This document shows, piece by piece, positions 7,720-13,182 of a stretch of DNA of 64,000 nt; the first letter of the stretch is position 1; every line of letters starts with the position of its first letter. Under the pieces are notes generated by a model. It searched no databases and was not told where the DNA came from. It was given only the letters and a program-made list of their open reading frames with translations. The position numbers and the translations under genes are program-made. The DNA comes from an uncultured Roseicyclus sp. (lineage in GTDB: Bacteria > Pseudomonadota > Alphaproteobacteria > Rhodobacterales > Rhodobacteraceae), in assembly GCA_964615955.1 (NCBI GenBank), contig CAZTUG010000003.1:1226-65225 (forward strand). Direction: 5' to 3'.

Positions 7720-8241
7720 ATGCCTGACATAACCGATACAACCCGGATGCCTTATCAGCTTCCGTTTCCCAGCGATGCGTTACCCGAAATCGTGATCCCC
7801 CAAGCAATTCCCGAGGATGAGCGCATCTGGGTGCCACAGGCCGAAAATGTCTGGTTCCGTCCCTTGTGCCTGAACCGTTCGCAGGGCTACTGGGTCAACC
7901 TGCTAAGAGTACGCCGGGCGGGGGTATTGTCACGCCACCGCCACCCGCAACCTGTTCATGGCTTCGTTCTTAAGGGGCGCTGGCACTATCTGGAGCATGA
8001 ATGGATCGCCGACGAGGGCGGCTATGTCTTCGAAGCACCGGGCGAGACCCATACCCTGGTCGTTCCTGAGGATGTGGACGAGATGATCACGCTATTCCAG
8101 GTCAATGGAGTGATGTGCTATGTGGACCCATGGGGCAAGGTCGCAGGCTATGAAGACGTTTTCACCAAGATCGACCTGTGCCGGAAACACTACGCGGACG
8201 TTGGCTTGGGAGCGGAGTTTGTGGAAAGTTTTATTCGTTAG
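7720..8241 (+). CDS. cupin protein, 2,4'-dihydroxyacetophenone dioxygenase family-like
   Basis: 173 aa with RBS GGAGGA. Cupin His cluster SRHRHPQPVHGFVLKGRWHY..EAPGETHTL. The overall sequence resembles the DAD dioxygenase family. Confidence 0.75.
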   Translation: MPDITDTTRMPYQLPFPSDALPEIVIPQAIPEDERIWVPQAENVWFRPLCLNRSQGYWVNLLRVRRAGVLSRHRHPQPVHGFVLKGRWHYLEHEWIADEGGYVFEAPGETHTLVVPEDVDEMITLFQVNGVMCYVDPWGKVAGYEDVFTKIDLCRKHYADVGLGAEFVESFIR

Positions 8242-8418
8242 CCTCGTCGATTTCGTAGAGGAGCCTTGTCGCCTACAGCGTAGCGAAGAATTGCGTTTAA
8301 CTTTCAAATGACTGTTTTGCGATGGACCCCAGCAGCCATCTACCACGGGCTGTTTACGCGTATGCTGCAGATGCAGTGCCGGGACCTCACAGATGGCTTT
8401 CTGCCCATCGCATCGGTT

Positions 8419-8781
8419 TCACACGGCTTCGCCCCACGGTCGCACCCTCGGCATCACCCCCGTCACCTCAACCTCGCGCAACATGCGAGCGGATACCAAC
8501 CCGTCGCGCACCCAATCGAGCGCCTGCCACCAGTCGTCATAACCCCGATGGGCGGCCTCGATCTGCTGCGGATGGGGTCGCAGGGTCACCGGACAGGCCG
8601 GAACCTCGACCGTGCGCCACTTGCCGCGTGAGAGCACGCGCTCGGTGCCCACGACGATGGTGGCGGCGCGCTCGCCATGCTGGTTGCGCCTGGTGTCAAC
8701 CGGGACGACGCGCGGCACCGCACCGGGCATCCAGTCCGGCGTCAGCCCAGCGCGCGCGAGTTCGGCGACACGGATCGCCAT
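8419..8781 (-). CDS. hypothetical protein or gene fragment (possibly mobile-element derived)
   Basis: Protein-like part of track ORF 8419..9027, read from its internal Met: MAIRVAELARAGLTPDW...RGKWRTVEVPACPVTL...YDDWWQALDWVRDGL. I recognise no family. The upstream part of the ORF is antisense to the integrase remnant. Confidence 0.25.
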   Translation of the reverse strand: MAIRVAELARAGLTPDWMPGAVPRVVPVDTRRNQHGERAATIVVGTERVLSRGKWRTVEVPACPVTLRPHPQQIEAAHRGYDDWWQALDWVRDGLVSARMLREVEVTGVMPRVRPWGEAV

Positions 8782-8826
8782 GCGCTTGCCGCCAAGGCTA
8801 TCGGGCAGGCCTGCGACAGTGGCAGC

Positions 8827-9009
8827 GATCACTTCTGCATCCTCATGGGTGTGTCGCTCTGGATCGAGCAGGGCTTCTCGATCAAGGAGATTATGACCTT
8901 CGCTGGCCACTCCTCGATCCAGATGACCATGGAACGCTACGGCCACCTGTTCCCTTCGCCCGACCACCAGAAGGCCATGGCCATGGTCGAGGCGAAGCTG
9001 CTGGGATAA
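8827..9009 (+). pseudogene. tyrosine recombinase/phage integrase, C-terminal ~60-aa remnant
   Basis: The C-terminus of track ORF 8677..9009 reads ..LWIEQGFSIKEIMTFAGHSSIQMTMERYGHLFPSPDHQ... This is the conserved His-II (GHSS) and catalytic Tyr (RYGHL) box of tyrosine recombinases. The upstream Arg-I/His-Arg boxes are absent. Confidence 0.7.
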
Positions 9010-9141: not shown

Positions 9142-10302
9142 CTATTTCAAACGTTGCTCAAAAAACTCATCTTCGAGCCCTTCATATTTTTTGTCCAATA
9201 GCGGAGCCACGAAGCGCCACGGGACGAAGACTTCGTGCGAGCCAAAAGCGTAGGGCAGAACTCCATAGGGACTGAAATTCATCGTCAGGCCTCGGTCGTC
9301 GAAACTGAATTGCGAGGCGAGGCCCCAAGTGTGTTTCCGATCCTCAAATGAGTGCGTGATGAAGTCCTCTAGACCTTCGCCATCGAACATCGCGAGAAGG
9401 ACTTTCTTGCAATACTCAAGTAGCCGAAAGGCATTGTCTGCATCATGCCCTAGCAGATCATTGATTGAGCAAAGGCCATAGTCGGGCCCGAGAAAGTTAA
9501 GCGTAGTAACCCCATGGTTTGGGTGCGCGCCGCCCGAGTACCAATATACGGAAGACCGAACCGACAGAAACTCCCCACGCCGAAAAAATTCCTGCATGTT
9601 TAAACCCCACTCATGTGGTGCGTTGTATTCTACGGCCCGTTCTTTTTCTTGCTCGTCCATTAGCTTGAATTCGGCAACCGCACCAACAAACCCGCCCAGT
9701 GCTTCAGTAGTCAGACGTGCGTTGACAAAATCCCAGTAGACGTTGCCACCAGGGTACTGAAGGTAATCAGCGGAGACCAGAAAGTGCTCCGTTGATACAG
9801 ACGATTCGACATGCGAGGGCCGCGCCTCACCACTAGCGTCACGCGGGTCTTCCTTCACCGTCGTCGTTCTTTCGGGAGCAATCCGAAGGACGGTGCCGCC
9901 AAGTTGTCTTAAACGCTTCGTGACGGCATGCGCGAGTTGGTCGCGCCATGCCTCCTGGAAGTGGTCGATGTATTGAAATCGGATCAGCTCAACCGGCATC
10001 CGCAGGTCGTCAAGGCGAATAAAAACGACGTATGTCGCGCCAATCGGTTGGTCGTCGACGAGTTTAAGTGTCTGCTTGATTTCACGGTTCACGACGCCCG
10101 GCCGCGAAAATACCTCGGTAGATATCAAGTGGACAACGAAATCGGCATCTTGCTGTGCGGTGGCTCTTTCACGGTCCCAATCGTCGCCACCGGTCAGAGA
10201 TTCTTTGTCGAACCAGACGTTGTCATTGAGGGTTCTCAGAAAGCCACAAACCTCTTTAGCCGCCTCAAGACGTTCCGATGGATATCCCAAGAATATTTTC
10301 AC
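9142..10302 (-). CDS. TIR domain - DUF4163/DUF3298-like domain fusion protein
   Basis: The N-terminus VKIFLGYPSERLEAAKEVCGFLRTLNDNVWFDKESLTGGDDWDRERATAQQDADFVVHLISTEVFSRPGVVNREIKQ fits the bacterial TIR_2 pattern (F.SY, VW.D, G..W, conserved E). The C-terminus has the DUF3298 hallmark YWYSGGAHPNHG and LNF..G. No signal peptide or TM segment. Probable GTG start at 10302 (AAGGG 7 nt upstream); the track ORF extends to a TTG at 10380. Low GC. Confidence 0.8.
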   Translation of the reverse strand: MKIFLGYPSERLEAAKEVCGFLRTLNDNVWFDKESLTGGDDWDRERATAQQDADFVVHLISTEVFSRPGVVNREIKQTLKLVDDQPIGATYVVFIRLDDLRMPVELIRFQYIDHFQEAWRDQLAHAVTKRLRQLGGTVLRIAPERTTTVKEDPRDASGEARPSHVESSVSTEHFLVSADYLQYPGGNVYWDFVNARLTTEALGGFVGAVAEFKLMDEQEKERAVEYNAPHEWGLNMQEFFRRGEFLSVRSSVYWYSGGAHPNHGVTTLNFLGPDYGLCSINDLLGHDADNAFRLLEYCKKVLLAMFDGEGLEDFITHSFEDRKHTWGLASQFSFDDRGLTMNFSPYGVLPYAFGSHEVFVPWRFVAPLLDKKYEGLEDEFFEQRLK

Positions 10303-10544
10303 AGATCGCCCTTTGTCTCGATGAGTTTTCAGCAGAACCGTAAGCGATACGGGGGCTGTTGAGAAGGGCTGCGGCCACAATCCCTCAAATCGGGCATCTG
10401 CGGTTGTATGCTTCAGATTGTTGCTTCACCAAAAGGCTATTATCGAGGCGAAGCCGCTCGCCTGATCGGATTACTGTTTGTTCCCATGGGTTTGCGGATC
10501 TTCCGTGCGACACGACGCCGACGTTTCGTGTCCAACATTGGCAT

Positions 10545-10587: not shown

Positions 10588-10632
10588 CTCATAACCTGAA
10601 GGTCGTAGGTTCAAATCCTACTCCCGCAACCA
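10588..10632 (+). other. tRNA-Met (anticodon CAU) 3' fragment: anticodon loop to CCA, att-site-like remnant
   Basis: CTCATAACCTGAAGGTCGTAGGTTCAAATCCTACTCCCGCAACCA closely matches the 3' part of alphaproteobacterial initiator-type tRNA-Met (..CTCATAACCCGAAGGTCGTAGGTTCAAATCCTAC.CCCGCAACCA). The preceding 40 nt lack an acceptor 5' strand (GCGGGAG) and a D-arm, so this is not a functional tRNA. Confidence 0.7.
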
Positions 10633-10851: not shown

Positions 10852-11355
10852 CTAAGGTTTCGCGTCTCTGTCAATGGCGAAACTCAACACGGCAGGCAGC
10901 GCCAGTTGGTCGAGCTTGGCGAGGCGGTCGTCGATGTAATGTCCCGGGGCGTGAAGCAGGTTGACCGTTCCGATGAACTCTCCGCCCAGCACCACGGGCA
11001 GGTTTATCACGGACCCAAGACCGAGCGCGGCAATCATCTCGTGGTCGGGGAAGACGTCCGAAAATCCCTCGACAGAGTTCGCGACAAAAACCTCGCGCTC
11101 GCGGATCACGCGCCCGGTCCAGCGGTTCGGAACGATCTCCTTCAGTCCCGACAACGGGTAGTTCCTTGAATCGCTCGTGTATATACGCGCCGCGACGCCG
11201 CTTTCCGGGCCGGTCAGTCGGAACTCGGACACCGAGAAAAGCTTGTGGCCGATACAGGCCTGGCAAAGCTCCTCCAGAGCGGGGAACAGGTTGGTCCAGC
11301 CATCGCTCCGGACGGTGCGGGCGAAGCGCGCAAGTGGGGCAGTCCCGTTATCCAA
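10852..11355 (-). CDS. GAF domain-containing protein
   Basis: 167 aa. The GSVINLPVVLGGEFIGTVNLLH pattern is typical of small GAF proteins. The TTG start overlaps the stop of the upstream M24 gene by 8 nt. Confidence 0.75.
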   Translation of the reverse strand: MDNGTAPLARFARTVRSDGWTNLFPALEELCQACIGHKLFSVSEFRLTGPESGVAARIYTSDSRNYPLSGLKEIVPNRWTGRVIREREVFVANSVEGFSDVFPDHEMIAALGLGSVINLPVVLGGEFIGTVNLLHAPGHYIDDRLAKLDQLALPAVLSFAIDRDAKP

Positions 11356-12451
11356 TGACCTGCATCCTTGTGTCGAACTGCGTCAGGCAAACGTGGCCGT
11401 TTTCGACGACCACGACATCATCCTCGATGCGGACCCCGATCTCGGCCTCCCGGTACAGCCCGGGTTCGATTGTGAAGACCATGCCGGTGCGCTGCGGGGC
11501 CGTGTTGGATCGCAGGATTGGCGGCGCCTCGTGCACCTCCCGGCCAAGCCCATGGCCGGTCTTGTGCAAGATCATGTCGGCGAAGCGCGATGCCTCGAGA
11601 ACGCCGGACGCGGCATCGTCCACGGCGCGCAAGGGGGCGCCGGCGCACACGGCCGCGCGACCGGCCAGATTTGCACCCAGCACTGTTTCGTAGATTTCCG
11701 CGTGGGCGTCGGTGGCATGCTCGCAGAATACGGTTCGGGTGATGTCGGCATGCATGGTGCCGTAACTTGCGCCGAAATCCATCAGCAAGACGTCGCCCGC
11801 CGAAAGCCTTCGGTCGGACGGGTCGCCATGCGGGTTCGCCGCTGCGCCACCACCAAGCACGATCGGATCGAAGGCGAAGCCGGTTGCGCCGTGGGAAAGC
11901 ATCGCCGCTTTCAGACGGGCAGCTATCTGGCGCTCGCTGCAACCGCAAATGCCTGCCTCAAGGGTTTCGCCCAACGCCGCCTCGCTGATCGAGATGGCCC
12001 GGCGCAGCTGGTCCAGTTCTTCCGCGTCCTTGATCAATCGTAGATCGGACAGAGCGGCATCGGCGTCGGTCAAGGCTGCGACGCCCACATGCCGGGCCAG
12101 CGCCCTGTATTCGGCGGCGCGCATCCGCATCCCCTCGATCCCGAGCGGCAATCTGGCGGAAAGGCGTGCCGCAAGCGCGGCGAAGCCGGCTTCAGGCCCC
12201 TCCGCGTCATCCCAGTATGTCGTCTCGCACCGAGGCATCGCAGCCTGCCACTTTTGACGTTCGAGGGCCGGCATCAGCGCATGCGAGTCACCGTCTGCCA
12301 TCAACACGTAAAGCGTCGGCCGCTCCATCAAGTGCAGCGAGACGTCGGTGAGATACCGCAGGTTCGGCCCCGGCACGAACGCGACGCAGCCAAGCCCGGC
12401 GTCGCGCAACAAAGTTGCAGCGCGTGCGCGCCGATCATCGAGAACGTTCAT
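11348..12451 (-). CDS. M24 family metallopeptidase (Xaa-Pro aminopeptidase/creatinase-like)
   Basis: 367 aa with a creatinase/prolidase N-domain plus pita-bread fold. Metal ligands appear in LLMDFGASY, DITRT, HKTGHGLGREVHE, FTIEPG and IRIEDDV. ATGA overlap with the GntR gene. Confidence 0.9.
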   Translation of the reverse strand: MNVLDDRRARAATLLRDAGLGCVAFVPGPNLRYLTDVSLHLMERPTLYVLMADGDSHALMPALERQKWQAAMPRCETTYWDDAEGPEAGFAALAARLSARLPLGIEGMRMRAAEYRALARHVGVAALTDADAALSDLRLIKDAEELDQLRRAISISEAALGETLEAGICGCSERQIAARLKAAMLSHGATGFAFDPIVLGGGAAANPHGDPSDRRLSAGDVLLMDFGASYGTMHADITRTVFCEHATDAHAEIYETVLGANLAGRAAVCAGAPLRAVDDAASGVLEASRFADMILHKTGHGLGREVHEAPPILRSNTAPQRTGMVFTIEPGLYREAEIGVRIEDDVVVVENGHVCLTQFDTRMQVIG

Positions 12452-13182
12452 GGCTCCTGCACCTGATCGATCGCCATCTTGTGCCCGAAGCGCGGGCCCA
12501 GGCCGTTCTGGATGACGCGGGATTCAAAGAGAATGACCGCGCTGACCGCGACATCGCCAGCCTCCGCGTCGTGTGCCGCCATGGCGTCGACAACAGCCCT
12601 CAACCGCGCCACCGCCTCGTTGAATTCGGCCTTGGTCAGGTGCGGGAAGAAGTACAGAAGCTTCATGCGGACCGAGGCGTCCTGTGCTTCGAGGAAATAC
12701 TTCGACAAGAAGCGATTGCGCGCGAGGCTCGCGATGTGCCGGAAAAGGCCAAGCTGCGCGCGGAAGGCCGACTCGGTGTCGCCTGCCTGCAGGCCTGTTT
12801 CATAGGTCGCGACGAAGGCTTCGAGATCGGCACGTCGTGTCTGGCCTTGCAGTGCGGCGGCACGGATCAGGCCCCGCGACAGAAGCAGATACGTGTCGAG
12901 AAACGCTGATTGGTTGTGCAGGGACAGGGGCGCGACGATCGACGTCCTGTTCTGGAGGAACTGGACGAAGCCTTCGTTCGCAAGCAGTAAAAGGGCTTCG
13001 CGGACAGGTGTGCGCGACACCTCGTAGGACTTGGCCAGTTCGACTTCGTCGAGCGCCGTGCCCGGCGCGATCCGAAGCCACTGTATATCTTCGCGCAGTT
13101 TTTCATGGACCATCAGCGCGCCCCGCTTCTTGCGGGGGGGCGAGGTCTTGGCGGCGTCGGTAGGGTCATTTTGCGTCTGCAT
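12448..13182 (-). CDS. GntR family transcriptional regulator
   Basis: Internal ATG at 13182 gives MQTQNDP.... HTH motif ELAKSYEVSRTPVREALLLLANEGFV plus an FCD-like C-terminal domain. Track ORF 12448..13356 is over-extended across the promoter region. Confidence 0.85.
   Translation of the reverse strand: MQTQNDPTDAAKTSPPRKKRGALMVHEKLREDIQWLRIAPGTALDEVELAKSYEVSRTPVREALLLLANEGFVQFLQNRTSIVAPLSLHNQSAFLDTYLLLSRGLIRAAALQGQTRRADLEAFVATYETGLQAGDTESAFRAQLGLFRHIASLARNRFLSKYFLEAQDASVRMKLLYFFPHLTKAEFNEAVARLRAVVDAMAAHDAEAGDVAVSAVILFESRVIQNGLGPRFGHKMAIDQVQEP

Follow-up and report, generated by a model that had tools for sequence, protein, structure and literature searches.

A 64,000-nucleotide stretch of contig CAZTUG010000003.1 from an uncultured Roseicyclus sp. 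(the 64 kb window) carries a reverse-strand gene whose 386-amino-acid (aa) product joins an N-terminal TIR domain to a C-terminal DUF4163-DUF3298 module. With moderate confidence, we propose that this product is a self-contained cytoplasmic abortive-infection protein, directed against phages or mobile elements, whose gene arrived on an integrative element that later decayed around it. The analysis itself shows both folds, conserved catalytic and BB-loop residues, a cytoplasmic location, the lack of a conserved partner, and the mobile or defence context of the family. An earlier note, made from the sequence alone, had read the gene as the only cargo of a decayed tRNA-Met island, with a TIR_2-like domain, a DUF4163/DUF3298 C-terminal half, a candidate Glu in an NREI motif, no leader or membrane segment, and no ThsA-like partner adjacent. 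Residue numbers below refer to the 386-aa product unless the 412-aa frame is stated, and the coordinates of all features are collected in Table 1.

Domain architecture and predicted fold

Three Pfam families matched the protein above their curated gathering cut-offs (28 bits for TIR_2, 29.1 for PdaC/DUF4163, and 24.1 for DUF3298). In the 412-aa frame, TIR_2 (PF13676) covered residues 29–149 with 48.9 bits (E 1.1e-12; 118 of 122 profile positions), PdaC/DUF4163 (PF13739) covered residues 235–288 with 31.3 bits, and DUF3298 (PF11738) covered residues 308–388 with 29.1 bits. The AlphaFold2 (AF2) model, computed from 52 family sequences (mean predicted local distance difference test score, pLDDT, of 90.1), consists of two domains joined by a low-confidence linker, with alternating strands and helices in the TIR half.

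When the N-terminal half of the model was compared to the PDB using Foldseek, the best match was the SPARTA TIR-APAZ protein (8qlp, 23% identity), followed by MAL, MyD88, SARM1, AbTir, and TIR-STING; target-normalised TM-scores to the TIR domains of MAL, MyD88, TRR-2, SARM1, and AbTir ranged from 0.69 to 0.78. The proximity to SPARTA was also seen at the profile level, where a TIR-only profile spanned the whole domain of the BabSPARTA TIR-APAZ protein (8qlo_A, E 3.7e-4) and the SPARTA-type TIR-APAZ models of PADLOC matched the TIR part only (profile positions 31–126, E 1e-9). For the C-terminal half, Foldseek returned 3cyg (4.5e-10), 3s5t (7.6e-10), 4e72 (1.8e-8), and lysozyme-bound RsiV (5jen, 3.5e-7). 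The first three of these were likewise its sequence matches in the PDB, with the family profile matching 3cyg at E 1.3e-14. The check by structure prediction that the earlier note had suggested thus supports both folds, and both of its domain assignments are upheld, the TIR_2-like domain by Pfam, the AF2 fold, and Foldseek, and the DUF4163/DUF3298 half by the agreement of Pfam, PDB, and Foldseek matches, RsiV included. NCBIfam has no model for the protein, and the viral structures in BFVD gave only generic TIR or deoxyribosyltransferase-like matches.

The GGAHPNHG motif of the C-terminal half was considered as a family-specific ligand or metal site. We rejected this candidate since exported DUF3298 lipoproteins carry the same motif, which makes it a trait of the fold family rather than of the TIR fusion.

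Putative active site of the TIR domain

Judged from its sequence, the TIR domain is a candidate NADase of the enzymatic type. The family alignment comprises 52 homologues that are 28–76% identical to the window protein, and the Glu singled out in the earlier note (E74) held up in it as an invariant residue that also aligns with the catalytic motif of SPARTA. It lies within a helix spanning residues 70–83 in the AF2 model, matching the usual place of the catalytic Glu of TIR domains (helix alpha-C), and its surrounding GVVNRE motif aligns with GVL-KE of the BabSPARTA TIR-APAZ protein (TIR-only profile against 8qlo_A), the aligned residue being E77 by chain count, as the deposited chain has two extra N-terminal residues. 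In MapSPARTA, the E77A variant is catalytically dead, the BB-loop comprises D40–W46, and BB-loop mutations lower NADase activity (PMC10899771). E74 is thus the putative equivalent of SPARTA E77, based on alignment and chain count rather than on a superposed active site. Two invariant residues of the predicted BB-loop, G39 and W42, fall within one residue of SPARTA G42 and W46 in the sequence alignment. A HMMER alignment to 7uxr instead placed the family Glu after the WxxxE of AbTir-type TIRs; we take this placement to be an artefact, since the HMMER alignment is local and partial, whereas the SPARTA alignment over the full domain puts the Glu on the catalytic motif.

Cellular location, gene start, and selection

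As the earlier note had anticipated, the protein is predicted to be cytoplasmic, given that it has no hydrophobic segment long enough to span a membrane (the highest 19-residue Kyte-Doolittle mean is 1.01) and begins at the first TIR strand, which leaves no signal peptide.

The longest open reading frame (ORF) at this locus (9142..10380 on the reverse strand; 412 aa from a TTG start) is the one from which the earlier note worked. That frame is present, but the gene itself appears to start further downstream, with the GTG at 10300–10302 most likely being the true start codon. This is because a Shine-Dalgarno-like AAGGG precedes the GTG, the database protein P0001, which matches the query with 100% identity, is 386 aa long, and the MKIFLGY... 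N-terminus in most aligned homologues is the equivalent of the GTG start.

The gene appears to be horizontally acquired. It has a GC content of 0.525 and a third-position GC content (GC3) of 0.571, as opposed to a GC content of 0.634 for the window and GC3 values of 0.62–0.82 for neighbouring genes, in agreement with the low GC remarked on in the earlier note. Its 386-codon frame is intact, whereas the neighbouring integrase and thiG genes are reduced to fragments, and the identical intact locus was recovered in independent metagenome assemblies. Compared to a 76% identical homologue in locus L004, the closest with available nucleotide sequence (synonymous divergence, dS, of 1.1), the ratio of nonsynonymous to synonymous substitution (dN/dS) is 0.13. 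A terminator scan found terminator-like matches only inside the coding sequence.

Family distribution and genomic contexts

We found 81 clusters (90% identity) with the full-length architecture, and all clusters bearing a taxon name belong to alphaproteobacteria (Rhodobacterales, Hyphomicrobiales, Sphingomonadales, and Caulobacterales). A profile of the C-terminal domain returned 134 clusters, among which the TIR-fused proteins stood at E <1e-44, followed by a sharp drop to generic DUF3298 proteins at ~1e-16; when run against 1.84 billion representatives, the same profile recovered 72 with an E of 1e-30 or lower. Approximately 16 of 185,579 species-representative genomes carry the family, 15 of them with a full-length match. 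The family is small and sporadic.

The earlier note had proposed a survey of whether homologues sit in defence islands. Across the ~20 family loci that we inspected, most homologues reside in prophages, IMG/VR viral contigs, tRNA-linked islands, or plasmid defence islands. Among those with phage genes, one homologue sits with a primase-polymerase, a portal, and a terminase gene in a phage-like element flanked by a tRNA-Asn gene on one side and an integrase gene on the other, another is an opposite-strand insert among the structural genes of a lambda-like prophage, and a third, in Mesorhizobium sp. LHD-90 (L088, 1–9621), abuts an RcGTA-like head-tail cluster (terminase, portal, S78 protease, capsid, and tail). 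Four IMG/VR viral contigs hold homologues, one together with ParA, a replication initiator, and an invertase, and another with a tape-measure gene. Islands with defence genes include one with SNF2/DEAD helicases, a resolvase, and an integrase; one at tRNA-Arg with an integrase, GmrSD_N, and AAA_21; one at tRNA-Tyr with MmeI and a resolvase; and one with an integrase, an Eco57I-type methylase, and McrBC. On plasmids, a Rhizobium island holds the homologue together with DarT, a methyltransferase, a recombinase, and RES-Xre, while an Agrobacterium island combines it with HEPN, GIY-YIG, an integrase, a PHD antitoxin, and an ATPase plus S8 peptidase. In Breoghania, ParDE lies upstream of the homologue, and in Aurantimonas the locus has numerous hypothetical genes along with an IS110 transposase.

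No neighbouring gene is conserved across the ~20 loci, the only recurrent one being a gene for a zinc-ribbon protein with a RES domain (PF08808, E ~1e-15). In loci L019, L020, and L021, this gene lies downstream of the TIR-DUF3298 gene on the same strand, separated from it by 18–51 bp or overlapping it. These three loci belong to one distant subclade and come from two Brevundimonas metagenome-assembled genomes (MAGs) and one unclassified Proteobacteria MAG. As RES domains carry the annotation NAD+ phosphorylase, this subclade may represent a two-gene variant with two NAD-targeting enzymes. As a general partner, however, the zinc-ribbon-RES gene was rejected, being confined to three loci of a single subclade.

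Other neighbours were noted at individual loci. Fused nucleotidyltransferase-HEPN (MNT-HEPN) genes occur in the islands of both L019 and L021, and L019 additionally encodes a small TIR-like protein beside an 8xMP membrane protein (PF24838). The positions concerned are 7813–8778 (forward) and 12247–13127 (reverse) in L019 and 7987–8916 (reverse) in L021; both the MNT-HEPN genes and the TIR-like/8xMP pair are likely further defence modules. In Qipengyuania atrilutea (L006), a gene for LprI ('lysozyme inhibitor', PF07007; 11118–11789, forward) starts 2 bp after the TIR-DUF3298 gene, which places a second lysozyme-associated domain family beside the RsiV-like fold; as this arrangement is found in the Qipengyuania genome only, LprI was rejected as a conserved partner. 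Lastly, a 256-aa SIR2-family gene (8057–8827, forward) lies 1.2 kb upstream of the homologue in L004, the nearest homologous locus on a long contig, in otherwise metabolic surroundings and is probably a housekeeping deacetylase.

Modularity of the putative sensor and its effectors

The DUF4163-DUF3298 module also occurs with a different N-terminal domain. A search of representative sequences combined with Pfam identified four proteins (P0227, P0236, P0253, and P0278) in which a leaderless DUF4163-DUF3298 module follows an HNH endonuclease, together with two further divergent TIR-DUF4163-DUF3298 fusions (P0137 and P0244). Because these cytoplasmic modules are fused to TIR in some proteins and to HNH in others, their sequences suggest that DUF4163-DUF3298 is a putative sensor with interchangeable effectors, and a swappable sensor/effector pattern of this kind is what would be expected of immune or conflict proteins. 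Among relatives lacking TIR, the nearest are DUF4163-DUF3298 lipoproteins that carry clear leader peptides and are exported. Searches of plasmids and phages for HNH-DUF3298 relatives returned nothing useful.

Three proteins (P0163, P0173, and P0177) are leaderless, stand-alone C-terminal domains of 224–242 aa that appear complete and lack TIR; these might serve as detached sensor subunits or as decoys. The TIR subtype (MKIFLSYASED...G[FY]xQ[KR]E), in turn, is fused to other modules in Chloroflexi, Acidobacteria, Myxococcota, and proteobacteria (loci L024, L028, L033, L035, L039, L043, L045, and L046, near position 10001 except for L024 at 6057 and L033 at 2334). To the eye, rather than by profile search, these other C-terminal modules look FGE-sulfatase-like, membrane-spanning, or P-loop NTPase-like.

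The insertion and neighbouring genes in the window

Table 1. Coordinates of the TIR-DUF4163-DUF3298 gene, its domains and motifs, the remnants around it, and the homologous loci with a zinc-ribbon-RES gene. Positions are those of the window except in the last three rows, where they are those of the named locus.
Feature	Position	Strand	Evidence or remarks
TIR-DUF4163-DUF3298 coding sequence, 386 aa	9142..10302	-	GTG start 10300–10302, stop 9142–9144
Shine-Dalgarno-like AAGGG (putative)	10309..10313	-	7–11 nt 5' of GTG; read from the sequence
TIR domain, residues 1–135	9898..10302	-	Pfam TIR_2, AF2 model, Foldseek, profile search
BB-loop core G39-D-D-W42	10177..10188	-	G39 and W42 invariant (52 homologues); loop after second strand
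E74 codon GAA, candidate catalytic Glu in GVVNRE	10081..10083	-	Invariant in 52 homologues
Flexible linker, residues 136–160	9823..9897	-	pLDDT 62–69 there only; length and sequence vary in family alignment
DUF4163(PdaC)-DUF3298 module, residues 161–386, putative sensor	9145..9822	-	Pfam, PDB sequence matches, Foldseek
H260-P-N-H263 in GGAHPNHG motif	9514..9525	-	H260 invariant; P261, N262, H263 at least 90% conserved
thiG (thiazole synthase) pseudogene fragment, left edge of insertion	8431..8646	-	Pfam ThiG 25.7 bits (cut-off 23), positions 84–156 of 247
C-terminal tyrosine recombinase remnant (...AGHSSIQMTMERYGHL...)	8863..8952	+	Pfam Phage_integrase 17.9 bits, E 0.0028, cut-off 27.1
45-nt tRNA-Met(CAT)-like 3' part, putative att remnant	10588..10632	+	Anticodon loop to CCA
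TIR-DUF3298/zinc-ribbon-RES locus, L019	11109-12170		
TIR-DUF3298/zinc-ribbon-RES locus, L020	3792-4871		
TIR-DUF3298/zinc-ribbon-RES locus, L021	10292-11401		

The gene lies in an insertion between a cupin gene (ending at 8241) and a GAF gene (ending at 10852). The recombinase remnant within it covers only positions 141–169 of the 172-position Phage_integrase profile, below the cut-off, and the ORF list holds no intact integrase in the insertion. The thiG fragment adjoins this remnant, and the insertion or a later deletion seems responsible for its truncation. On the other side of the gene, the 45-nt tRNA-like stretch, probably from an initiator tRNA (tRNA-fMet), runs from an anticodon loop reading CTCATAA through a T-arm to a CCA end, and occurs once in the window. 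The Rfam tRNA model matched its T-arm weakly in a narrow permissive search (15.7 bits, E 0.41), while neither ARAGORN nor Rfam at normal thresholds detected a tRNA gene in the 64 kb, and repeat searches of the window found neither a second copy of the tRNA fragment nor repeats bounding an island.

Four independent metagenome contigs (L098, L099, L101, and L102) with an identical GAF gene end inside the tRNA-like fragment, and a fifth contig (L097) has the identical arrangement including the thiG fragment. Contigs ending at this point fit a sequence that is repeated elsewhere in the genome, and suggest either such a repeat (i.e., other tRNA-Met copies) or a population that is heterogeneous at the junction. 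A decayed island at a tRNA-Met gene, as the earlier note described it, is a reasonable reading that is only partly demonstrated: the low GC and the tRNA 3' fragment agree with it, but the window holds no intact tRNA or second repeat, and the integrase match is sub-threshold.

Within ~6 kb, the neighbouring genes are metabolic or regulatory and encode DctM, Ldh_2, RraA-like, PfkB, SDR, and ChrR-type cupin proteins along with GAF, M24 peptidase, GntR, binding, and hydantoinase proteins. No gene for ThsA, pAgo, a cyclase, or another partner was found within this distance, in line with the earlier note on ThsA, nor was there a SLOG, Macro, SAVED, or STING gene near the window gene.

Proposed mode of action and alternative explanations

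We propose that the DUF4163-DUF3298 module would sense a ligand that arises from infection (a protein or a molecule related to the cell wall) and that ligand binding would drive oligomerisation. The TIR domains would then stack head-to-tail, with the BB-loop of one entering the pocket of its neighbour to form a composite active site around E74, and hydrolysis of NAD+ would stop metabolism before the phage cycle could be completed. Activation by a BB-loop that completes the active site of a neighbouring subunit is known from SPARTA and other enzymatic TIRs (PMC10899771). Sensing, oligomerisation, NADase activity, and phage protection are the steps that we infer here.

The nature of the ligand is a separate matter. 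In RsiV, the lysozyme-binding domain is extracellular and binds the active-site cleft of lysozyme (PMC5014341). A leaderless RsiV-like module might by extension act as a cytoplasmic receptor for phage endolysin or lysozyme that accumulates before holin acts, or for fragments of the cell wall that infection sets free, with TIR or HNH as the exchangeable suicide effector coupled to it. We consider this reading improbable. Because the DUF4163/DUF3298 protein Rv1980c binds no lysozyme (PMC5014341), such an endolysin or muropeptide trigger is attractive but speculative, and lysozyme binding of the RsiV type cannot be assumed for the window protein.

Several observations weigh against the abortive-infection reading. 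A tblastn search of 50,697 sequenced phage genomes yielded no copy over the full length, two of the homologues sit in ordinary housekeeping or metabolic chromosome, and no sigma-70-like promoter was found upstream of the gene by a scan that was not tuned to alphaproteobacteria. In a comparison with the PADLOC models, along the lines of a check suggested in the earlier note, the TIR part was matched by SPARTA-type models but no model spans the whole protein. Literature searches found no characterised TIR-DUF3298 protein, in agreement with the earlier note, and nothing relevant on DUF3298, DUF4163, or RsiV in connection with TIR, phage, or defence. The Rv1980c result counts here as well, since it means that lysozyme binding is not general to the fold. 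Finally, the conserved Glu alone fails to separate NAD+ depletion from signal production, as signal-producing TIRs such as those of Thoeris need it equally.

This last point leaves room for a TIR that makes a signalling nucleotide in the manner of Thoeris ThsB, with killing left to a separate effector, namely the zinc-ribbon-RES protein in some clades and an unlinked gene, or none, in the window genome. The same-strand RES gene that follows the TIR-DUF3298 gene in L019, L020, and L021, and the annotation of RES domains as NAD+ phosphorylases, would fit such an arrangement. The RES gene is, however, present in only 3 of the ~20 loci and in none from the clade of the window protein, and these three may even share one island, given two of them share MNT-HEPN. 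Genes for ThsA, SLOG, Macro, SAVED, or STING proteins are lacking near the window gene, the ThsB models of PADLOC did not match the protein, and the nearest TIRs are those of the NAD+-depleting SPARTA; we regard signal production as quite unlikely. An explanation in terms of a toxin-like or addiction module, or of a regulator linked to stress or the cell wall, is likewise unlikely; carried on mobile elements, the protein would then consume NAD+ in response to an endogenous signal (e.g., muropeptides or envelope damage) rather than in phage defence. The plasmids and prophages that hold homologues, the toxin-antitoxin genes nearby (ParDE, PHD, and RES-Xre), the non-defence surroundings of some homologues, and the cell-wall-related targets of characterised proteins with the C-terminal fold (RsiV and lysozyme) all speak for it. 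No cognate antitoxin gene is conserved alongside, however, the neighbours are mainly restriction, Abi-type, and phage genes rather than envelope genes, and the pairing of a sensor with swappable effectors, here TIR or HNH, is a pattern characteristic of immune proteins.

We consider it very unlikely that the TIR domain is a non-enzymatic scaffold or that the window copy is an inert, unexpressed leftover of the decayed island. Some TIR domains are indeed non-enzymes (PMC10899771), the island around the gene is degraded, and the missing promoter-like site would suit a silent gene. Yet the catalytic Glu and the Gly and Trp of the BB-loop are invariant, and an intact 386-codon frame with a dN/dS of 0.13, recovered as the same intact locus in independent assemblies, is not what a leftover would be expected to show. 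The abortive-infection reading remains our preferred one.

Comparison with known systems and significance

TIR NADases are central immune effectors in bacteria, plants, and animals, and the systems that use them differ in how infection is sensed. The family described here pairs a SPARTA-like TIR domain with a fold for which lysozyme is the sole ligand characterised, and does so in the cytoplasm. If it does act in phage defence, it would be a compact 386-aa, one-gene system from marine and soil alphaproteobacteria, a group that the defence screens done in E. coli and Bacillus cover poorly; the large DUF3298 family would gain a further functional context, its second, and selecting escape mutants would be a tractable way to a new phage-derived trigger. 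Should the trigger prove to be the phage lysis machinery, the family would form a new class of bacterial pattern-recognition receptor, built on a fold that to date has been characterised in extracytoplasmic proteins alone; with any other trigger, it would hold no surprise for specialists.

On the side of the sensor, the window protein resembles RsiV and other DUF4163-DUF3298 proteins (3cyg, BF2082, PA4972, and MPT64) in its two-lobed fold and in the motifs GGAH... and ...PY..G. It differs from RsiV in sequence (~12% identity) and in location, the RsiV domain being extracellular, whereas the window protein is leaderless and fused to a predicted cytoplasmic effector. The HNH-DUF4163-DUF3298 proteins (the four listed above) share the leaderless C-terminal module and an N-terminal effector of ~100 residues, differ in that this effector is a nuclease rather than TIR, and are likewise uncharacterised.

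In overall plan, the window protein parallels DSR1 and DSR2. DSR2 is reported to be a SIR2 NADase that acts as a single protein and recognises the tail tube protein of the phage. The window protein would work most like the TIR module of SPARTA combined with this DSR logic, and would share with DSR1 and DSR2 an N-terminal NAD+-degrading effector and a C-terminal recognition domain in one polypeptide with no partner. The effector is TIR rather than SIR2, however, the sensor fold is unrelated, and at 386 aa the protein is far smaller.

Thoeris likewise employs a bacterial TIR with a catalytic Glu and is found in defence islands. Unlike in Thoeris, no ThsA was found next to the gene in the window or at the homologue loci inspected, the ThsB profiles gave no match to the window protein, and the TIR domain is fused to its own putative sensor. 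For CBASS, we noted only a marginal match of a PADLOC SAVED_TIR model over the TIR part (E 0.0057), with no cyclase gene nearby.

SPARTA provides the closest TIR domain by both profile and structure, with a common GV(L/V)x(x)E motif and a Gly and a Trp in the (predicted) BB-loop. By analogy, activation is likely to be the same, with oligomerisation forming a composite NADase site that leads to NAD+ depletion. The window protein nevertheless lacks APAZ and Argonaute and is encoded by a single gene rather than a two-gene operon, and because its C-terminal half is DUF4163-DUF3298, its trigger is not the guide-RNA-directed recognition of DNA. The window protein is thus not Thoeris, SPARTA, or CBASS, since the defining partner or domain of each is absent here. 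Although its architecture is already present in databases as a 'TIR domain-containing protein', the presence of its relatives in prophages, plasmids, and defence islands makes it a good candidate for a one-gene anti-phage system that combines a SPARTA-like effector with an RsiV-like putative sensor.

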